This document shows positions 22,223 to 53,241 of a stretch of DNA of 64,000 nucleotides, piece after piece. This DNA is from a virus. Position 1 is the stretch's first letter; every line of letters begins with the position of its first letter. Both the position numbers and the translations under genes were made by a program. A model generated the notes under the pieces. It did no database searches. It was not told where the DNA came from and saw only the letters and a program-made list of their open reading frames with translations. The stretch is from the IMG/VR virus record IMGVR_UViG_2974643820_000001. One strand, written 5' to 3'.

Positions 22223-22741
22223 TTAGATGGTATTCATGTAGAGAGGGACAACCTGCTCAGCGATCAAAATGATCTCGTTGATGGTAAAGTCGCCGCCATA
22301 AGAGTTCAGCTTCATCTGCGCCCCGTTGGTCGCGAGGTTCCCTGCCTTGTCAACACTGAAGAACGTGATGAAAGAGAGAACGTCCGGAGGCGGTAAACTG
22401 GAATCACGGCTCTTTGACAACTGGTTGCCAGTGGAGCCGACAAAGTCCAGCAACATTGTCCTGTTGGAAGTTGAACCAGACCATGTTCCGATAATGTTCA
22501 CCTTGACAGGCAAGATGGAATCTACGGGAAACGCATGGAATTTATGATCAGACAATTTGAAGAAAGGAGCTAACCCGGTCACGGACGAAGGATGTGGTGT
22601 CTTGCCATCCAACAACGTTAAGAGATCAACACCAGTCGCTCCAGCAGGCAAAGCCGCTGTAAGGCCAGAGAACCTCACTTCGACTTTGATGCGATGCGTC
22701 TGAAGCATATTGCCCAGATAAGGAGAAGGTAGAATGGCCAT
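22223..22741 (-). CDS. hypothetical late protein, 172 aa
   Basis: AGGAGG RBS; second gene after the TATAAATA promoter. Confidence 0.8.
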   Translation of the reverse strand: MAILPSPYLGNMLQTHRIKVEVRFSGLTAALPAGATGVDLLTLLDGKTPHPSSVTGLAPFFKLSDHKFHAFPVDSILPVKVNIIGTWSGSTSNRTMLLDFVGSTGNQLSKSRDSSLPPPDVLSFITFFSVDKAGNLATNGAQMKLNSYGGDFTINEIILIAEQVVPLYMNTI

Positions 22742-22749
22742 GGCTCCTC

Positions 22750-22986
22750 CTAGGACACGATAATAGAAGAAGCGGAAGACGCGCTCTTAACCCATCCGAC
22801 CGTTGGTGGGGTGAGCACAACGATATTACCTTGATAGAGAGTATGAGCCGGAGAGGAAGCACTCGGTGTGGTTGGACTATCACACAAATACACAGAACCT
22901 TGAGTCACTTGTATTGTTTTCAATGATGTGCCATCTGAGACTTGCGTCCATGTACTTGCGTCCAGAGTAAACTTGGCTGTTGCCAT
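22750..22986 (-). CDS. hypothetical late protein, 78 aa (MATAKFTLD...)
   Basis: AGGAGG RBS; TATAAATA at 23014-23021. Confidence 0.8.
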   Translation of the reverse strand: MATAKFTLDASTWTQVSDGTSLKTIQVTQGSVYLCDSPTTPSASSPAHTLYQGNIVVLTPPTVGWVKSASSASSIIVS

Positions 22987-23013
22987 GATACACCTCCTGT
23001 ACAAGTTCAGATC

Positions 23014-23021
23014 TATTTATA
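23014..23021 (-). promoter_or_regulatory. T4-type late promoter TATAAATA
   Basis: Exact T4 late consensus in intergenic region. Confidence 0.7.
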
Positions 23022-23027
23022 CCGGAC

Positions 23028-23056
23028 AAAAGAAAGCCGGATATCCTTATCCGGCT
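23028..23056 (-). terminator. terminator closing the tRNA/ncRNA transcript
   Basis: AGCCGGATA/TATCCGGCT stem plus TTCTTTT. Confidence 0.8.
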
Positions 23057-23303
23057 ATGCCACATCGATGGGATGGGTGGAAAGACTACACACTTCGCAC
23101 TGGTACTGCCTTATGGGAGAGCGCGTCAGGAGTCGAACCTGAAGTCGTCGGCGTAGAGAAAGCTATTTGCATTTCACTATCCTCGCCTCGATTTTCTTAA
23201 CTTCCTAAACACCCGATTACGAGAGAGTCGACATGCACATCTTCTAACTCTTCAGGAAGTCACGCCCAAAATATGATTTGCGATGATGGACCCATTCCAT
23301 CTG

Positions 23304-23369
23304 GGGCTGGGTGAGTGGGAGTTGAACCCACAACGCTTGGCTCGCTTTCCCTACCATTCAGGCCACCCA
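23304..23369 (-). pseudogene. degenerate tRNA-like element
   Basis: Acceptor TGGGTGG/TCACCCA and T-arm GTGGG-TTCAACT-CCCAC; no anticodon arm; ends GCCC, not NCCA. Confidence 0.4.
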
Positions 23370-23467
23370 ATTCCAGGAGGTAGAACACCTTTGCCGTCAG
23401 TGTCCATGCGCCAGTCTTCCGCCCTAGCCTCCACTCGCGTCTGGGATTTCCGCGATGATCGCAAATT

Positions 23468-23556
23468 TGGCGGAAGGTGAAGGATTCGAACCTTCGGGGC
23501 TTATAAGCCCCACTCGATTAGCAATCGAGTCCCTTAAACCTCTCGGGCAACCTTCC
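23468..23556 (-). tRNA. tRNA-Ser(GCT)
   Basis: Full class II cloverleaf; CTCGA-TTGCTAA-TCGAG anticodon arm; GGTTCGAATCC; encoded CCA. Confidence 0.95.
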
Positions 23557-23623
23557 AGTATTAGCCCCTCCCTGTCACCATCCAGGAATCCTGTAGGAAT
23601 CGAACCTACACGAGGGGGTTATT

Positions 23624-23707
23624 TGGAGCGGGAGAGCAGGATTCGAACCTGTCCAGTGATCGTCGCCGATGATCAGTCAGCTACTGGCCAACCCCTATGG
23701 CTCCCGC
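23624..23707 (-). ncRNA. tRNA-like RNA with Gly-type acceptor and no canonical anticodon arm
   Basis: GCGGGAG/CTCCCGC-T-CCA, T-loop TTCGAAT, non-canonical interior. Confidence 0.55.
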
Positions 23708-23815
23708 GAAATTAGGACGGGCTTCACACCCGATTGTGCATTTCATCTGCCCGTTTGAAGGGCGACCAGTGCCTTCTGGTCAGATACACAGCGTGGCTGC
23801 AACGCTTACTGTGTT

Positions 23816-23899
23816 TGGTGTGAGTGGATGGATTCGAACCACCGCGCTGTTACGGGGAGATTTACAGTCTCCTGCATTCGACCGCTCTGCCACACTCAC
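23816..23899 (-). tRNA. tRNA-Tyr(GTA)
   Basis: GGAGA-CTGTAAA-TCTCC anticodon arm; long variable arm; encoded CCA. Confidence 0.95.
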
Positions 23900-23902
23900 A
23901 TT

Positions 23903-23976
23903 TGGTCTACCGCTACGTGCTGGGCCACGCTCGAGGACATCGGCCATCCTTCCTCAGCTAATCCACGCAGCGGCAG
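23903..23976 (-). ncRNA. CCA-terminated long-stem RNA
   Basis: 13-bp stem CTGCCGCTGCGTG/CACGTAGCGGTAG followed by A-CCA; sits directly upstream of tRNA-Tyr. Confidence 0.5.
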
Positions 23977-24045
23977 ATTTGTTTCAGAGTGTCCGGTGTA
24001 GCAACCCGTGAGGTGCGCACTACTGTAGCCTCTACACTCTGAATT

Positions 24046-24150
24046 TGGTGGGCGTTACTATCGTCGTCTTCGGATTCCGTTCGGCTATTGGACAGAGGCT
24101 TGGAGCTTGTCGGTTGCGTACTTCGTGCCTATCCACTTTCGTTCACACCC
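24046..24150 (-). ncRNA. CCA-terminated ~105-nt RNA
   Basis: GGGTGT/ACGCCC-A-CCA terminal stem; no T-loop; directly downstream of tRNA-Asn. Confidence 0.5.
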
Positions 24151-24156
24151 ATTGTC

Positions 24157-24232
24157 TGGCGACGATGGCAGGACTTGAACCTGCGACATACGGTTTAACA
24201 GACCGCCGTTCTACCGACTGAACTACATCGTC
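24157..24232 (-). tRNA. tRNA-Asn(GTT)
   Basis: 76-nt canonical cloverleaf; GCGGT-CTGTTAA-ACCGT; encoded CCA. Confidence 0.95.
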
Positions 24233-24233
24233 T

Positions 24234-24431
24234 TTATCCGTGCTTGTTCGCTTCAATCGCCCTTAATTGGGCATCAGCGTCAGCTTTGGTGTCATGTGTC
24301 CCAAGAACCTTCGTCTTGGTGTGGTCAAGGACAACCCACTTGTCGCCTCGCCTTTCAACAAACTCGACAATCTCTTTGTTGTCAGTAGCGAGGCCATCCC
24401 ACTCAGCAATAAAATCACCGAACGTTTTCAT
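24234..24431 (-). CDS. putative internal head protein, 65 aa (MKTFGDFIAE|WDG...)
   Basis: T4 capsid-targeting-like N-terminus; own TAAATA late cassette. Confidence 0.75.
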   Translation of the reverse strand: MKTFGDFIAEWDGLATDNKEIVEFVERRGDKWVVLDHTKTKVLGTHDTKADADAQLRAIEANKHG

Positions 24432-24470
24432 CTTACTCACCAATTGTTTATTGAACAACTGGTTTATTTA
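24421..24470 (-). repeat. 50-bp late-promoter/RBS/start cassette, copy 1
   Basis: 46/50 identical to 24685-24734. Confidence 0.9.
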
Positions 24471-24695
24471 AACCCCGTACACGATGCCACGGCCTTTCGG
24501 TGTCTTACCATTACCGAACCATTTCCCTGTCATCTGAGCAGAGCCTGGTGTACTGGCAACAACAAATTCACTACCACCGTGACCTTCTTTGGTGAATTCG
24601 GCCTTTGGATTCTTCTTCAGGCAGACCTGTTTCCATTCATCAAAGTCATTGTATTCCTTGTTGGCTTCGGTCAGGAATTCTTTAAACGTTTTCAT
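24468..24695 (-). CDS. putative internal head protein, 75 aa (MKTFKEFLTE|ANK...)
   Basis: N-terminus matches T4 IPI MKTFKEF; own CTAAATA late cassette. Confidence 0.78.
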   Translation of the reverse strand: MKTFKEFLTEANKEYNDFDEWKQVCLKKNPKAEFTKEGHGGSEFVVASTPGSAQMTGKWFGNGKTPKGRGIVYGV

Positions 24696-24734
24696 GCTAC
24701 TCTCCAATTGTTTGTTGAACAACTGGTTTATTTA
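24685..24734 (-). repeat. 50-bp late-promoter/RBS/start cassette, copy 2
   Basis: 46/50 identical to 24421-24470. Confidence 0.9.
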
Positions 24735-25010
24735 GGTGCTCCCGAGGCGGCATTTCAATTCCGCGATCCCATCACGCCTGCCGTAGACCGGAGCTTGCTG
24801 GCAGTCCAACAATATTTGGTGTTCCCTGAGGGAGTCGAACCCCCAACTTCCGTTATTCTCAACAACCTTCCCCAGTCCGTGCAGTCTGGTACTCAGATGT
24901 CTACCTTCACGTTCGCCTGTATCCAAGCCTATCTCTTCATTTAACCTTACAGCCTCAATCTGCACGGGTGAAAGAGCTTCAGAGATACTGCCATACAACG
25001 GGAACAAAAC

Positions 25011-25113
25011 TGGCGGGGTCTGAGGCTTTTCACCTCACCTGCTGGGTTTGGCCGCCCAGCCGTTCTCTATGAGGATTCGCTGTCCGGACAGCTATCCCTT
25101 AAACTATCGCCCC
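25011..25113 (-). ncRNA. degenerate tRNA-like RNA ending GCCA
   Basis: GGGG/CCCC-G-CCA ends; TAGTTTAAGG D-loop-like start; TGAGG-TGAAAAG-CCTCA T-arm-like hairpin. Confidence 0.4.
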
Positions 25114-25119
25114 TCAATT

Positions 25120-25199
25120 TGGTTGGAGGAGAAGGATTCGAACCTTCAACGGCTGCCGCCATCCCCTCAGGGAATGTCTACCCCTTCCATCATCCTCCA
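25120..25199 (-). ncRNA. Leu-type class II tRNA-like RNA with collapsed anticodon arm
   Basis: Perfect acceptor TGGAGGA/TCCTCCA-A-CCA, T-arm, Leu-like D-arm and variable arm; anticodon arm is only TCCC-TGAG-GGGA. Confidence 0.65.
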
Positions 25200-25204
25200 A
25201 ATTA

Positions 25205-25950
25205 TTGTGTGACCAACCAAGGACTGTCAACCCTTTATCCCGTTTGTGCATGATCAGTTCATGCAGGCCTCTTTGTGCTGCCTCACGGCAACGCGCTTCT
25301 GCTGGTCATTGGCTTGCACCGTAGCCTCACAACAGGCGTTTATTTTTCCAGGGCTTTCCACTTGCAAGTCTTGACCATACAGGGATACGGGCTTGCAAGA
25401 TCGGGTTGGTAACAACTCTGATGGCTCTGAACGTTCTTTTCACTAGTCATCCACAACTGATATTCGGATGTCCAGAGCCATCAGAGTTGCAGCCAGGCTA
25501 CAACCCGCACTTCAGTGTCTTCGTCACACTTCGGCACTTGTCCTCTACGCTCGGACCAAACGAGGCTGGCCGACATAAACATAACACCACTCATCACTAG
25601 AGCGAGGATGTGGTTGATAGCCACGATGTATGCCTCTGTCGCAGAGTGATCACGCTTGTCAGGATGATCACTGTTTTGCAGTACCTGCCGCAAAGTAGAG
25701 TTCTCTGAACTTCAATGACCCCTCATCTTGTACTATCGCCGTCGGGAACGTTCACCATGTGAATCAAACCTTTAGGTTAAGTTCAATGTCCAGAGGACTC
25801 TACTTTGCGTTGTGGGGGCAAACCCCCACACGGCTACTTCTTTAACAGGGATTGCTAGCCCTGGGGATTCCACTGTTTAAGGCTTTATCCCATAACGCCT
25901 GAGGCGTGTTCTCAAACTAATAGAGTTTGCTTAATTGCAAACTGATGTGG
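25205..25950 (-). ncRNA. structured non-coding segment
   Basis: 17-bp IR 25413-25429/25473-25489; 11-bp IR 25690-25700/25798-25808; several hairpins; no credible RBS-led ORF. Confidence 0.5.
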
Positions 25951-25954
25951 CTAT

Positions 25955-26477
25955 GGGACACATCTGTGACGTATCTCTTATCCGGATTCGAACCGGATTT
26001 ATCCTGGCAGAGGAATCTAACCCCTTTACCTCGTGGCAACGAGGACGGTCAACAGACCTCAAGATACGTCACAGATGTGTTGCCCGTCACTTGCCAGAGA
26101 TCGGGGCGGATGGTAAGACTTCGCTCACATCTGGGAGGACACTGCTGTCGTTCGCGACCGACAACCACTCAGATATATTTCAATCATGTTGTGGTGCAAT
26201 GCCCTCTCAGATGTCGGCGGGAGCTTATTAATCACACCCTCCCGCCTATTGTTAGTGCGCCGAATTTTGTTATGAGGAGTCGGAAGACCTCACTGACTTA
26301 TAGGCTATTACGCCGCCATCAGAACTACATCATCGTTTGCATTTATTTTTGTGGTCTGTTTCTAAAAACCCGCAAAGTCACGCACAACGAAAACGAAAAC
26401 CTGTTTGAGCACAAGACGCCATGTCCTGGGTTCACATCGAAGTGTTTGTCTAGTGCCCAAACAGCTTTTCGTTCAGT
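25955..26477 (-). ncRNA. tmRNA-like structured RNA (3' end uncertain)
   Basis: Own promoter at 26484-26509; 21-bp helix; resume motif and tag frame; stop-codon hairpin; H-type pseudoknot; 19-bp helix enclosing a TTCGAAT T-arm. Confidence 0.55.
26305..26340 (-). other. tmRNA-type proteolysis tag reading frame ANDDVVLMAA**
   Basis: AAAAATAAAT|GCA AAC GAT GAT GTA GTT CTG ATG GCG GCG TAA TAG; ten codons, as in E. coli ANDENYALAA. Confidence 0.7.
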
Positions 26478-26510
26478 GGGTTAACTATACTTTGTAACCC
26501 GTTATTGACA
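26478..26510 (-). promoter_or_regulatory. promoter (TT)GTCAAT-N14-TATAGT with -10 in hairpin loop
   Basis: Same architecture as the TTCAAT-N14 class; GGGTTAC/GTTAACCC encloses the -10. Confidence 0.65.
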
Positions 26511-26519
26511 AAACTTTAA

Positions 26520-27140
26520 ATCTGCCGGAACTTACGCATCCGGCCTCGCCTGTTGGTGCTCCTTCGAATCCGGGAAGATCAGCAGGAACTATGAATCAAG
26601 TTAATTCGACCAACAGGAACCTTTGTGTTGCCCTTTGACGCAACATTATGAACCCTCTGTGAAGACTCATAATGTTGTCGGCGTGATGGAACCTGGCAGA
26701 TCCGACCTCCCCTATATGTTGGTGTCGACTTGCCAACGGGGTGCTCTCAAGCATCTGAGCTAATCACGCTACAACAGGGAGTTTCGTTCTCCGACGGTCA
26801 GTGCGTCCACTAACACCATGCAAGGTGGATATTCCGCCTCTATTCACACAAGCCCCTGAGACTAGGGGTTAACTGGTTTTGGGCTGCAAACCCGACTCCC
26901 ACTGTGCTGTTTCCCTCGTGTTTAATACTTTACCGCAGACCAGCTAATTTGAAAAGTCCTCTCCTCTTTGAGCTACACTGCCCACAGCAGTGCGGACGAA
27001 CCTTCACTCAAAACCGGATGCGCCGAAGTGGGCGACTGAGTACCGGACTGATCGGGTAGACCCAGGAGAGTAAAGGTAATCCCGATCAGGAGGATAAGGA
27101 GCAACATCATGTAAAACATAGTGTTCCCTCCCTTCCATGC
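26520..27140 (-). ncRNA. ~620-nt structured non-coding RNA candidate
   Basis: IRs at 26549-57/26609-17, 26641-51/26667-77, 27048-56/27081-89; terminator-like GCCGGA/TCCGGC hairpin at 26524-26544; no ORF of 60 aa or more. Confidence 0.55.
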
Positions 27141-27145
27141 AACTA

Positions 27146-27169
27146 ACTTTACTGCAATTCTGTATTGAA
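27146..27169 (-). promoter_or_regulatory. possible promoter TTCAAT-N12-TAAAGT for the large RNA
   Basis: TTCAAT present at 27164-27169 but spacer differs from the N14 consensus. Confidence 0.4.
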
Positions 27170-27176
27170 TAAAGCG

Positions 27177-27749
27177 TTAATTTAACACTTTTAACTTCAC
27201 ATCGCGCTCGAGCAGATACACATATTCGCGAGCGGCGGCCAGCGACATATAATGGGTGGACGGGATGCTGTGTTTGTTCAGCGTCTCTTTTAATTCAACG
27301 CGCTCAGCCCAACCATTAATGGATGTGCCGTAGAAGCCGATGATAGCCGCAAAATAAATGTTGCTAGTCTCAGGCTCCAGGATATAGTTCACCGTGAAGC
27401 ACACCTCGGAGCGGATTGCTTCAAGCTTGATGCCGACACGAGTGCTAGGATAGTCGTTGGCCACACATAAATGGCGGAAGCGGTCACGCCTGGCTTGTGA
27501 CGATTGCGTTAATTCGGATACCAATGTCGCCGTGGCATCGATATTAAAGGAGAAAGTGGAAGCCGTGTTCAAATCTGACTTTGCCCGATCTACCGCAGAT
27601 GGGGGAACACGGCGGAAATTGACTTCTTTACGTGTCAGGCGCTTCACTTCGGCGGATATATCTTCAAACGAAATATCCTTTGATTTCTTCCCTTCATATT
27701 TCTCTAATAAAGGAATGATATGTTTCGTGATGGCAGTGTTGATGTGCAT
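27177..27749 (-). CDS. hypothetical protein, 190 aa
   Basis: AAGGA RBS; perfect TTCAAT-N14-TATAAT promoter upstream. Confidence 0.85.
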   Translation of the reverse strand: MHINTAITKHIIPLLEKYEGKKSKDISFEDISAEVKRLTRKEVNFRRVPPSAVDRAKSDLNTASTFSFNIDATATLVSELTQSSQARRDRFRHLCVANDYPSTRVGIKLEAIRSEVCFTVNYILEPETSNIYFAAIIGFYGTSINGWAERVELKETLNKHSIPSTHYMSLAAAREYVYLLERDVKLKVLN

Positions 27750-50354: not shown

Positions 50355-51050
50355 ATGAGTGCTATGTCAGAACGCCTATTGTCCACCCTCGGTGCTATCC
50401 AAGCGCGGGATGAGGTCGCTCAGGAAGTGATGGAGAAGACCGCGCCTGTGGCTGGGAAAGATTATGATCCAGATACTGGAGTGTGGTTGGGTGAAAAGCC
50501 TGCAGGGTATGAGCCTGTGGTGTTCCCTCCTTCTCTGGACCCAGAAGAGCTGAAGTCCAAGGATTCCAAAGTCCCAGACTTTGACGACACGGACGCCACC
50601 ACGGATTACAAACGCATCCGCGACACGACTTACGCCATGCAGGAAGCCACGATGTTCATGATGGGACAGGCGGCCAAACTCGCGACGACCACAGAAGCGC
50701 CTCGGGCGTTTACAGTCTTCAAGGAGTTGGGTGAACTCATGCGCGGCCTGAACAAAGACTTGATGGAGAACCAGAAGACCATCAAGGCAGTTACAGGCGA
50801 CAAAGAGCCTCCAACAGATGACACGACTGTCGAGGTCACAACATCTCCAGATGGTGCAACCAAGGTTACAGTCGGGAAACAGGCGCGTTCTTCTCGAGAT
50901 CTACTCAAGACAATCGAGGATGCCAAGAAGCGTGCTGACGAGCGTACTCAGTCCAAGGTTAAGCCGAACGAAGAAGTGATAGACGTTCAGGCTGAACAAC
51001 CTGTGGAACCGAAGGATGAAGGTGAAGACAATGGCGTATCAGAAGCGTGA
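50355..51050 (+). CDS. gp16: terminase small subunit gp16
   Basis: EAPRAFTVFKEL motif; directly before TerL. Confidence 0.85.
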   Translation: MSAMSERLLSTLGAIQARDEVAQEVMEKTAPVAGKDYDPDTGVWLGEKPAGYEPVVFPPSLDPEELKSKDSKVPDFDDTDATTDYKRIRDTTYAMQEATMFMMGQAAKLATTTEAPRAFTVFKELGELMRGLNKDLMENQKTIKAVTGDKEPPTDDTTVEVTTSPDGATKVTVGKQARSSRDLLKTIEDAKKRADERTQSKVKPNEEVIDVQAEQPVEPKDEGEDNGVSEA

Positions 51051-53241
51051 TATAGAATATGCCCCGCTCAAGACGGGGTTCAAGATAGAAGACGTCAAAT
51101 TGCGTATGGACCAAACGTTCATGCGCAAGCCGTCTGTGCGCGCCCCTCGTGTCCAGTTGATGTTGACAGATGAGCAGGAAGATGAATTCGTCGAATGCGC
51201 GATGGATGCCCATTACTTCGCTGCCAACTACTACAAGATCACGACTATCGATAAAGGCTTCATCCTATTCGATATGCACGACTATCAGAAGCAGTTGTTC
51301 CATGACTTCCAGGATCACCGCTTCAACGCCGTTGTCCAGGCACGTCAGTCAGGTAAATGTGTGAAGGGTGACAGCATCGTCGAGGTCTACGACACAGTCA
51401 GCCAAGAAGAGTTTAAAGTCACCATCGAGGAGCTTCACAGCCGCTTCGAGGGACCGAACCACGCCGAGCCACTGAACGCCTTTGGCAAACACGATAAGTT
51501 CGTAGACAGCCGCTTCGGCAAGCGTTATTTCGTTCGCTGTGATATAGGCTGGGTGCCTGTCATCGCCGCGCACAAGACCAAGCAGTATCAGGAATATGTT
51601 GTCGTCACTTCCAGCGGCCGTCGTATCAACGTGGCCGATGATCACATGTTCTTCAATCAGAATATGAAGGAAGTGTTTGCCAAAGATCTGGTTGCTGGTT
51701 CACAGCTGATGACCGAAGAAGGTCTAGAAGAAGTCGTTGAGGTATGGCAGACTGGTGAGATGCACCACATGTATGACCTACAGGTGAAATCCAGCGACCA
51801 GCGCTACTACACCAACGGCTTCCTCAGTCATAACACGACTGTTGTGGCTGCGTTCCTTCTCTGGTATGCGATGTTCCACTCTGACAAAGAGATCGCGGTA
51901 CTGGCGAACAAAGAGAAGCAGGCGATTGAAATCCTTGACCGTATTCGTAAGGCGTATCAGGATTTGCCATTCTTCATCCAGCAGGGCTGTGAGAAGTTCG
52001 GCTCCACGCTCATCGAATTCGAGAACGGCTCGAAGATATACGCCTATGCAACATCTTCTGACTCCATCCGTGGTCGATCTGTATCGCTCCTGTATGTGGA
52101 CGAAGTGGCGTTCATCGAAAACGACTTTGAATTCTGGGAGTCAACATTCCCTGCGATTGCATCTGCAGAGACTTCACGTTGTATCCTGACCAGTACACCG
52201 AAAGGCCAGCGCGGGTTGTTCTACGACATCGTCACCAAGGCGAACCCAGAACATCCTCAGTACAACGACTTCAATCTCACAGAGGTTCCATGGTATCGTG
52301 TGCCAACATACACCAAGGATCCAAACTGGGAATCCAAGCAGAGGGCGAAGCTGGGCGATGCACGTTTCGATCAGGAATTTGGCATCAAGTTCCGTGGGTC
52401 GGTCGGTTCACTTATCCCGGCCAAGTGCCTGGACAAGATGACCTCGAAGCTGTATCAGGAGCCGAACGAGTTCACCAAGATCTATCACGACTACGATCCG
52501 AAGCGAATCTATATGGGTATCGCAGATACAGGCAAGGGCGTCGAGGGGGATTATTCTGTGCTGACCATTATCGACATCACAGACTATCCTCACAAGATCG
52601 CAGCCAAGTATCGAAACAACACGATACCTCCAATGATGTATGCGTACACAATCGCCGATATGGGCGAGAAGTATGGGACGTGTCCAATGTTGGTAGAAAC
52701 CAACAACGACGTGGGTGGACAGGTAATCACAATTCTATATCAGGAAATTGAATATCCAGAGATCATCTTCACCACAACAGATGCGAAGGGTACTGGTAAG
52801 CGAATCGGCGGTAGGCGGCCTGAACCTGGTATCAACACCAACAAGAAGGTGCGCACAAACGGCTGTGCCAACCTGAAAGCCCTGATCGAAAGGGAGATGC
52901 TGGTTGTTGACGATCAAGACACGATAGATGAACTCAGTACATTCGTATGGACTGGGACAAGGTATGAAGCCGATGATGGTTGTCATGATGACTGTGTAAT
53001 GCCTCTTGTGCTGTATGCATGGGCGGTGAAACAAGAATGGTTTAGTGACCTCACCAATTCCAGTATCTCAGTCGACATGAGAGGCCGCTTGTCTGCGATG
53101 GAAGAATCGCAGATGATGCCTTTCGGTGGTGTGTTGTCGGCTCCTGATCCGTTCTCTGTGGAGAGTGTGCCAGGATTTGGTGGCGTGCAGGTTTATGACG
53201 AACGTTCTGGCATGTCCATGGAAGAATGGCTGAGACGGTGA
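51031..53241 (+). CDS. gp17: terminase large subunit gp17 with intein, 736 aa
   Basis: ARQSGK|T Walker A; LLYVDEVAF Walker B; DDCVM nuclease motif. Confidence 0.95.
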   Translation: MAYQKRDIEYAPLKTGFKIEDVKLRMDQTFMRKPSVRAPRVQLMLTDEQEDEFVECAMDAHYFAANYYKITTIDKGFILFDMHDYQKQLFHDFQDHRFNAVVQARQSGKCVKGDSIVEVYDTVSQEEFKVTIEELHSRFEGPNHAEPLNAFGKHDKFVDSRFGKRYFVRCDIGWVPVIAAHKTKQYQEYVVVTSSGRRINVADDHMFFNQNMKEVFAKDLVAGSQLMTEEGLEEVVEVWQTGEMHHMYDLQVKSSDQRYYTNGFLSHNTTVVAAFLLWYAMFHSDKEIAVLANKEKQAIEILDRIRKAYQDLPFFIQQGCEKFGSTLIEFENGSKIYAYATSSDSIRGRSVSLLYVDEVAFIENDFEFWESTFPAIASAETSRCILTSTPKGQRGLFYDIVTKANPEHPQYNDFNLTEVPWYRVPTYTKDPNWESKQRAKLGDARFDQEFGIKFRGSVGSLIPAKCLDKMTSKLYQEPNEFTKIYHDYDPKRIYMGIADTGKGVEGDYSVLTIIDITDYPHKIAAKYRNNTIPPMMYAYTIADMGEKYGTCPMLVETNNDVGGQVITILYQEIEYPEIIFTTTDAKGTGKRIGGRRPEPGINTNKKVRTNGCANLKALIEREMLVVDDQDTIDELSTFVWTGTRYEADDGCHDDCVMPLVLYAWAVKQEWFSDLTNSSISVDMRGRLSAMEESQMMPFGGVLSAPDPFSVESVPGFGGVQVYDERSGMSMEEWLRR
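51358..51834 (+). mobile_element. mini-intein, 159 aa, in the TerL Walker A
   Basis: Begins CVKGDS, block B ADDHMF, ends YTNGFLSHN, followed by T; no LAGLIDADG motif. Confidence 0.92.

Follow-up and report, generated by a model that had tools for sequence, protein, structure and literature searches.

In a stretch of 64,000 nucleotides (nt) from the IMG/VR virus record IMGVR_UViG_2974643820_000001 (hereafter the window), which is part of the genome of an Ackermannviridae (ViI-like) phage, positions 26520-27170 had been singled out as a candidate for a large structured RNA with its own promoter and a terminator-like end. We find that these 650 nt (hereafter the module) comprise a small, probable membrane-peptide gene followed by a folded noncoding RNA of ~400 nt with a tRNA-shaped domain, all of which are encoded by the minus strand and described here in its direction. 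The locus is a real, conserved and unannotated structured RNA, whose kin in kind are the tRNA-derived stable RNAs of phage tRNA clusters, a likeness that would extend to its stability.

The module forms one end of a region of ~4.4 kb (about 22750-27170) that is poor in open reading frames (ORFs) and bears the phage tRNA genes, which ARAGORN places at 23468-25199, all on the minus strand like the module. The ORF-poor stretch is bordered by a minus-strand gene of 190 aa (27177-27749, PHROG 3788), beyond which follows a baseplate wedge gene on the plus strand. Over the flagged stretch, the identity to Salmonella phage P46FS4 (Agtrevirus) amounts to 94.7%, and the module matches 268 Ackermannviridae phage records, with a query coverage of at least 80% in 246 of them, from phages that infect Salmonella, Klebsiella, Escherichia, Shigella, Serratia, Enterobacter and Yersinia. 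Within the records and the metagenomes searched, the RNA family is limited to this one phage family; the module has no match in E. coli genomes at E ≤ 10, and the RNA is absent from Rfam and from the annotations of the GenBank records examined. Homology to the relatives is continuous from the 190-aa gene to 26520 and stops, in many genomes, at 26518-26520. Over this distance, the noncoding domains are mostly 80-97% identical to the window at the nucleotide level, as compared to 63-77% for the flanking 190-aa gene, the product of which shares 63-79% of its residues with those of the relatives.

Right after the stop of the 190-aa gene lies a set of promoter-like blocks (P1, 27176-27135), made of a TTCAAT element, located at 27169-27164 in agreement with the original prediction, and a GTAAAGT that ends at 27146. 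Across 32 copies of the module, the two blocks are invariant and the spacer is variable, and in divergent relatives the same position is occupied by TATAGT or by TTTTCA-17-TAAAGT. P1 stays under the threshold of our sigma70 scan in the window, and the motif TTCAA..GTAAAGT occurs twice in the 64 kb, both times within the module. A second, sigma70-like site (P2, TTTTCA-17-TAAAGT, 26955-26927) precedes the noncoding part; its -35 block is invariant and its -10 block takes only the forms TAAAGT, TATAGT and TATCAT, preserving T1, A2 and T6, a pattern that fits a promoter and that would put the start of the RNA at about 26920. The next cassette starts with its own clear sigma70-like promoter (TTGTCA-16-TATAGT, 26511-26484), so that the hairpin at the end of the module does precede another promoter, as had been proposed.

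The 5' part of the module is occupied by an ORF of 48 aa (27119-26973) with a hydrophobic N-terminal helix and a strong Shine-Dalgarno sequence (GGGAGGG, about 27132-27125). It had been noted that no ORF within 26520-27170 reaches 60 aa, and this is correct (the longest are 52, 51, 48, 46 and 44 aa), but the cut-off hides this conserved frame. Its product is a member of PHROG 8415 (E = 1.4e-32, residues 1-48 on profile positions 1-48 of 48), and the frame is open in 23 of 23 distinct variants, some of them just 60-70% identical, with ~3 stop-creating changes expected and 0 seen; the ORF is probably translated. A ratio of non-synonymous to synonymous polymorphism (pN/pS) of 0.91 and the distribution of variable columns over the three codon positions (28/23/33) give no indication of purifying selection on the protein. 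The same segment contains RNA helices that covary, with pair 91:128 changed from GC to CG in 10 sequences and pair 148:154 from CG to UA in 10, and the 9-bp helix 27048-56/27081-89 of the original prediction is found here as well. At the end of the ORF, a hairpin that overlaps the stop codon (26993-26975) has three consecutive pairs fully compensated in 11 sequences (CG to GC, UA to GC and GC to AU), and it is in these 11 sequences that the C-terminus of the peptide switches frame. In the clade of Klebsiella phages, the ORF has a nucleotide identity of 64-66%, as compared to 80-89% for RNA domains b-c and the 3' domain described below; the ORF has thus diverged like a protein gene and the RNA domains have been conserved, which means that the two parts are under different constraints.

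The noncoding RNA itself (about 26920-26524) is a multi-domain unit of ~400 nt, and its 32 copies differ by dispersed gaps of 1, 2 and 4 nt, so that this part is not coding. At its centre lies a cloverleaf (26769-26681), composed of a 7-bp acceptor stem, a D arm, a long arm in the place of the anticodon arm, the variable loop AGGUC and an analogue of the T arm. A covariance model of this domain (R1), with pair statistics on 29 distinct sequences, recognises a single site in each genome, at 58-113 bits; it picks up neither a paralogue in the window nor a genuine tRNA, and has no hit in Dickeya phages or T4. Fully 97.5% of the pair cells are standard, compared to 41-52% in controls slid along the sequence, and 14 of the 25 pairs have changed on both sides, compared to 5.8±1.4 in shuffles (none of 500 as high). 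In the acceptor stem, six of seven pairs covary, and one relative has swapped five of the seven with pairing retained. For many variants the minimum-energy fold is a clean cloverleaf, with a 7-bp acceptor, 2 nt, a 4-bp D stem, 1 nt, the long arm, a 5-nt variable loop and a 5-bp T stem, by which the 12-bp stack of acceptor and T stems is retained.

The ancestry of this domain is written in its core. Invariant in the 29 sequences are U8, A9, G10-C13, A14, G15, G22-C25, a purine at position 26 and the variable loop R-G-G-N-C, where only position 47 is free; U8, A9, A14, G15, R26 and the 5-nt variable loop are, together with the four-arm topology, the 7-bp acceptor and the 4-bp D stem, what it has in common with the tRNA family (Rfam: RF00005). 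In an alignment to E. coli tRNA-Val(UAC) (valT), it corresponds in its acceptor and D arm, in the top portion of the anticodon stem and in the variable loop; as the E. coli genome search returned nothing, the likeness to tRNA-Val relies on this direct alignment. We also considered a working tRNA and rejected it: RF00005 scores 22.8 bits at 26680-26769 (minus strand), where the threshold is 29 bits, and ARAGORN is silent there. In contrast to tRNAs, there is no anticodon loop (no 5-bp stem with a 7-nt loop), its place being taken by an arm of 4+5 bp with the 10-nt loop CAAGUCGACA (26732-26723); the D loops have no GG (no G18 G19), some of them carrying inserts; the T loops have no consensus and vary in sequence and length (CGCUAA, CUGGUAA and UGCCAG, among others); and no CCA is encoded, the acceptor stem being followed by CGA in 26 of 29 copies, with C and not A as the base after the stem. 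Since the acceptor sequence is free to covary, no synthetase identity is retained. The long arm, on the other hand, is common to all copies and kept by compensatory changes, which shows that selection maintains a shape that is not that of a tRNA. Its loop, C-(A/G)A-GUCGAC-A, contains a palindrome that 28 of 29 distinct copies have in identical form, and the one variant, GUUGAC, is still self-complementary by way of G.U. The cloverleaf is therefore derived from a tRNA and under selection as a fold, and it cannot work as a tRNA, having lost what decoding and, as far as can be read from the sequence, charging require. The D loop is also a site tolerant of expansion arms: the copies of three Taipeivirus (Klebsiella-phage) genomes (L013, L019 and L045) have an extra hairpin of 11-41 nt within it, and the insert in L058 is longer still.

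Upstream of the cloverleaf are domains a and b-c. Domain a (26907-26846) is a three-way junction with a closing stem and two hairpin arms, one of which, CCCCU/AGGGG, is the AGCCCCT/AGGGGTT helix already recognised (26851-26870). This Y shape is the minimum-energy fold of the window-, P46FS4- and maane-type sequences; in L005/Ecl02 and in the Klebsiella clade, the minimum-energy folds differ and equivalent pairings were traced by eye. Domains b-c (26845-26773) consist of two hairpins and an invariant GGAG-AACGAAA-CUCC hairpin (26792-26778), with 83-97% nucleotide identity across genera and pair 370:384 occurring as CG, UG and UA. The block CCGUCGGAGAACGAAACUCCCUG was invariant in a first alignment of 17 copies and is so as far as CUGUU in the 32 copies. 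Directly 3' of the cloverleaf follows helix e (26677-26641), a 16-bp hairpin of which the predicted 11-bp helix 26641-51/26667-77 is a portion. All its cells are paired, and 13 of its 16 pairs are constant in 27 distinct sequences, with the remaining three varying only between G.U and A-U or G-C; an overlapping alternative hairpin (GUUGC/GCAAC, 26644-26627) may form on part of it. Domain f (26617-26549) is a junction domain, in which a closing helix of 9-10 bp (CCUGUUGGU/ACCAACAGG), predicted as the 9-bp helix 26549-57/26609-17, encloses two hairpins, the first of which is missing in the Klebsiella-phage clade. The closing helix is 100% paired, its variation amounting to one double change and several substitutions of U-G for U-A, and the inner helices have five pairs with double changes in divergent relatives. 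The terminal hairpin (26544-26524), GCCGGA..UCCGGC as predicted, is likewise 100% paired, every change in it being from C to U and yielding G.U on the minus strand, and may serve as a weak terminator or as a 3' stabiliser.

A second covariance model (R2), for the 3' domain and with 27 distinct copies aligned, has 95.8% of its cells paired and six double-change pairs, compared to 1.0±0.9 in shuffles (none of 500 as high). When R1 and R2 were used to look for paralogues in the window, in the Dickeya-phage loci and in T4, they returned nothing but a partial match of 16.6 bits to one shared Dickeya hairpin. The helices of the two models together contain 268 G.U and 22 A.C cells, from which it follows that they hold solely in the minus-strand transcript. 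All four helices named in the original prediction agree with the consensus structure, and the covariation found in the cloverleaf and the 3' domain, the lack of which, along with that of a discrete transcript, had been put forward as its refutation, bears out its reading of the module as a structured noncoding RNA in a phage tRNA region. Two of its further claims have to be revised. The module does not read as one uniform RNA of ~620 nt, as its first ~200 nt hold the PHROG 8415 ORF and a second promoter-like site stands before the ~400-nt noncoding part; and it reads not as a single ornate fold but as a chain of local domains, the sole long-range pairing proposed by RNAalifold being broken without compensation in divergent relatives.

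We consider it the best explanation of these observations, and hold with moderate confidence, that the module is a minus-strand unit with two products, a small hydrophobic peptide and a ~400-nt noncoding RNA around the tRNA-derived cloverleaf, which would be processed to stable RNAs and act as a tRNA mimic. Transcription of the RNA would start at P2, or reach it by read-through from P1, and its 3' end would lie at the hairpin 26544-26524. Host tRNA-processing enzymes would then cut the transcript, as they do for other units of tRNA clusters: RNase P directly 5' of the cloverleaf (about 26769) and possibly a nuclease acting on double strands or on 3' ends at the invariant hairpin that follows it. 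Such cleavage would free one or more stable small RNAs, comparable to species 1 and 2 (rnaC and rnaD) of T4, and the tRNA-shaped piece could serve some tRNA-binding factor as a decoy or as a scaffold, with the invariant palindromic loop as a contact or self-pairing site.

Several points weigh against this explanation. A literature search found no transcripts of these phages, so that we infer the start, end, processing and stability of the RNA. P2 matches the sigma70 consensus at 8 of 12 positions in the window, slightly under the threshold of the scan, and the tail of the terminal hairpin (AGAUUUAAAGUUUU), which had been described as T-rich, has three U within its first 8 nt and falls below the criteria of the tool for an intrinsic terminator. 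With its degenerate elbow, in which the D-loop GG and the T-loop consensus are missing, and without CCA, the cloverleaf may be a poor substrate for RNase P. As to the fold, the single sequence of the window has a z-score of -1.76, a stability that 6 of 100 shuffles attain, and since its margin over shuffles is modest the case for structure depends on the comparison with relatives. There, helix e and hairpin c never vary, which leaves their pairing unproven by covariation; alignments made with covariance models are biased toward the modelled structure; and a naive all-against-all scan of alignment columns yields 864 'covarying' pairs, most of the variation reflecting one clade split. Given so many hits from so few lineage splits, we count contiguous helices alone as evidence.

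The alternative that fares best is that the module is expressed as one messenger RNA (mRNA) of ~650 nt, where the structured 400 nt are the 3' untranslated region of the peptide gene and make the message more stable or regulate its translation. A precedent would be the hok-type toxin mRNAs of type I toxin-antitoxin systems, which fold back on their ribosome-binding site. In favour are the small size and hydrophobic product of the ORF, its strong Shine-Dalgarno sequence and its conserved open frame; covarying helices within the ORF and the weakness of P2 in the window point the same way. RNAalifold joins the Shine-Dalgarno region to GUUCCU..UCUUCC, ~590 nt further on. We rejected this pairing because it is broken without compensation in three relatives (L056 and L058, where GGAAGG has become CGAAGC, and L057), whereas a local helix on the same 3' bases is compensated in divergent relatives, so that a hok-like fold-back of the ribosome-binding site is unsupported. 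Together with the conservation of P2, which is that of a promoter, and the divergence of the ORF away from the RNA domains in the Klebsiella-phage clade, this makes a single mRNA, in our view, unlikely, if still deserving of serious attention.

A narrower version of the idea of a tRNA mimic takes the RNA to be purpose-built, with an L-shaped core and a lengthened arm that ends in a self-complementary loop, by which two copies, or the RNA and a partner RNA, would kiss. It would sequester a host factor directed at tRNAs, such as an anticodon nuclease or another tRNA-targeting defence, in the manner of a decoy or sponge. The loop does have the format of the kissing-loop dimerisation hairpin of HIV-1 (the dimerisation initiation site), in which a purine-A, a 6-nt palindrome and an A make up a loop of 9 nt. 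The loop in the module, C-AA-GUCGAC-A, differs from it in having 10 nt, and the resemblance may be due to chance; we regard a mimic built for this purpose as distinctly unlikely.

The original prediction had seen in the module a distant member of the GOLLD and ROOL RNAs or a new class of large noncoding RNA. An ornate RNA in the sense of GOLLD and ROOL would be one globular and possibly multimeric particle of a new class. The likeness is in the setting and the make-up: association with phages, proximity to tRNA genes, a length of several hundred nucleotides, many conserved helices and variable sites of insertion or expansion; and the invariant 6-nt palindromic loop, flanked by A's, could give rise to loop-loop self-association, even though one palindrome among about ten loops is plausible by chance. 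We compared the whole window to Rfam with cmscan at the gathering score, and positions 22500-27400 at E ≤ 10, and with neither setting was there a match to GOLLD (RF01998) or ROOL (RF03087), nor to any other large RNA; beyond the weak match to tRNA, no Rfam family was found for the module, and we rejected a kinship with GOLLD or ROOL. In contrast to those RNAs, it is a chain of local domains and is known from one phage family only. All supported helices are local, and no tertiary or inter-domain pairing is supported, neither by the RNAalifold candidate, which was checked in divergent relatives, nor by the column scan, which was uninformative. An ornate RNA in this sense is, we believe, quite improbable.

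One might further regard the module as a relic, a decaying and functionless tRNA-Val pseudogene with leftover spacer, as the cloverleaf fails tRNA detection, its T and D loops vary freely and accept inserts of 11-41 nt, and some relatives do without it. Yersinia phage CAU_YEP3 (L016 2996-3459) has lost the whole tRNA/RNA island and is left with the small ORF and the first ~460 nt of the module, its cloverleaf being severed in the middle of the long arm, so that half the cloverleaf is gone; and Dickeya phages (L015 3380-3220, reverse), like the IMG/VR contig L009 (6687-6845), hold other cargo between homologous P1 and P3 flanks. A relic, however, would hardly be better conserved at the nucleotide level than the adjoining protein gene, nor would it be expected to have its long arm and loop in common among all copies, with the arm kept by compensatory changes and stem loss in no copy, and we hold decay to be very improbable. 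That the module is an element acting at the level of DNA, for instance as an origin or as a site of packaging or recombination, is suggested by its invariant inverted repeats, chiefly helix e, and by the homology breaks and insertions that gather at its border, but is scarcely credible given that the excess of G.U over A.C cells confines the helices to the minus-strand transcript and that a cloverleaf topology with tRNA core nucleotides would be senseless for DNA.

For the unit with two products that we favour, the closest analogues are the stable RNAs C and D of T4 (species 1 and 2), encoded in the T4 tRNA cluster, the function of which is still unknown (PMC9697503). In both cases small structured RNAs are found on the tRNA strand inside the tRNA region of a large lytic phage, and the T4 cluster lies among genes for internal proteins and homing endonucleases, as apparently does this one. 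The T4 rnaC (L047 4909-5047, minus strand) folds with a z-score of -4.6 and combines a canonical T arm (CCGGG-UUCGAAU-CCCGG) with a terminal closing stem, from which we conclude that it is tRNA-derived, too, with expanded inner arms; rnaD has no significant fold (z-score of -0.8). There is no sign of homology, as R1 and R2 have no match in the T4 locus. While rnaC retains the T arm and is without D and anticodon arms, the module RNA retains the D arm and the core and is without the T-loop consensus, and, unlike in rnaC and rnaD, its cloverleaf is part of a larger unit of ~400 nt that has several domains and a promoter-like site of its own. Both accumulation and processing have been demonstrated for the T4 RNAs and are predicted for the module RNA.

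Phages of the Ackermannviridae (ViI-like) are in wide use against Salmonella, E. coli O157, Shigella and Klebsiella, and yet ~4 kb of each such genome are annotated as empty or as doubtful tiny ORFs. One block of 650 bases in this region can now be described as a defined RNA gene with a tRNA-derived core, selected across several genera, for which coordinates, a structure model and two covariance models are available for annotation. It also provides a second, independent example of the puzzle posed 50 years ago by the T4 stable RNAs C and D. Were the RNA to act as a decoy for tRNA-targeting immunity, or as a processing handle, this would account for the retention of 'broken' tRNAs by large lytic phages; were it a kissing-loop tRNA mimic, it would represent an RNA-only counter-defence in a phage family used for biocontrol.

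The surroundings of the module vary between relatives. Its 3' border (26518-26520) is a hot spot of insertion, with 80-270 extra nt in relatives; in Salmonella phage SeKF_19, the insert includes an element annotated as 'tRNA-Ala', and HNH homing-endonuclease genes are found near this border in pSal-SNUABM-02, HMGUkp5, FrontPhageNews and L060. The cargo that Dickeya phages and contig L009 carry in the place of the module is a Cys-rich ORF of 52 aa (CPTC...CMKTFC, zinc-ribbon-like) with a good ribosome-binding site, followed by a hairpin that has the segment GAATTAACTTGATTCAT in common with the module. With the same flanks around different cargo, the slot behaves like a cassette that can be exchanged.

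In the next cassette, downstream of the promoter at 26511-26484, there are weak Rfam matches at 26256-26457 (minus strand) to permuted transfer-messenger RNA (tmRNA; RF04321, 29.4 bits, E = 0.003) and to alpha_tmRNA. By the crude test of RNAduplex, the module RNA and the putative RNA of this cassette pair no better than shuffles (-207 kcal/mol compared to -209±9). At 25120-25199 (minus strand), ARAGORN calls a tRNA-Ser(tga) for which the Rfam tRNA family stays below threshold and only tRNA-Sec is matched, at 24.5 bits; this is probably another non-canonical tRNA-like unit. ARAGORN further calls a tRNA-Asp with the anticodon ATC at 51439-51526 (minus strand), inside a long plus-strand ORF (51016-53241), which, as it has no Rfam support, is probably a false positive.

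Finally, a scan of metagenomes with the invariant 20-mer of the module, CGTCGGAGAACGAAACTCCC, returned two more close homologues and five other contigs, which are chance or unrelated matches and in three of which the match is apparently inside coding sequence. Two occurrences (L049 706-725 and L055 197-216) are intergenic, on an unrelated type of metagenomic contig, and there the 20-mer sits after a TATAAT-like site and another small hairpin, which may reflect chance or a common hairpin motif.

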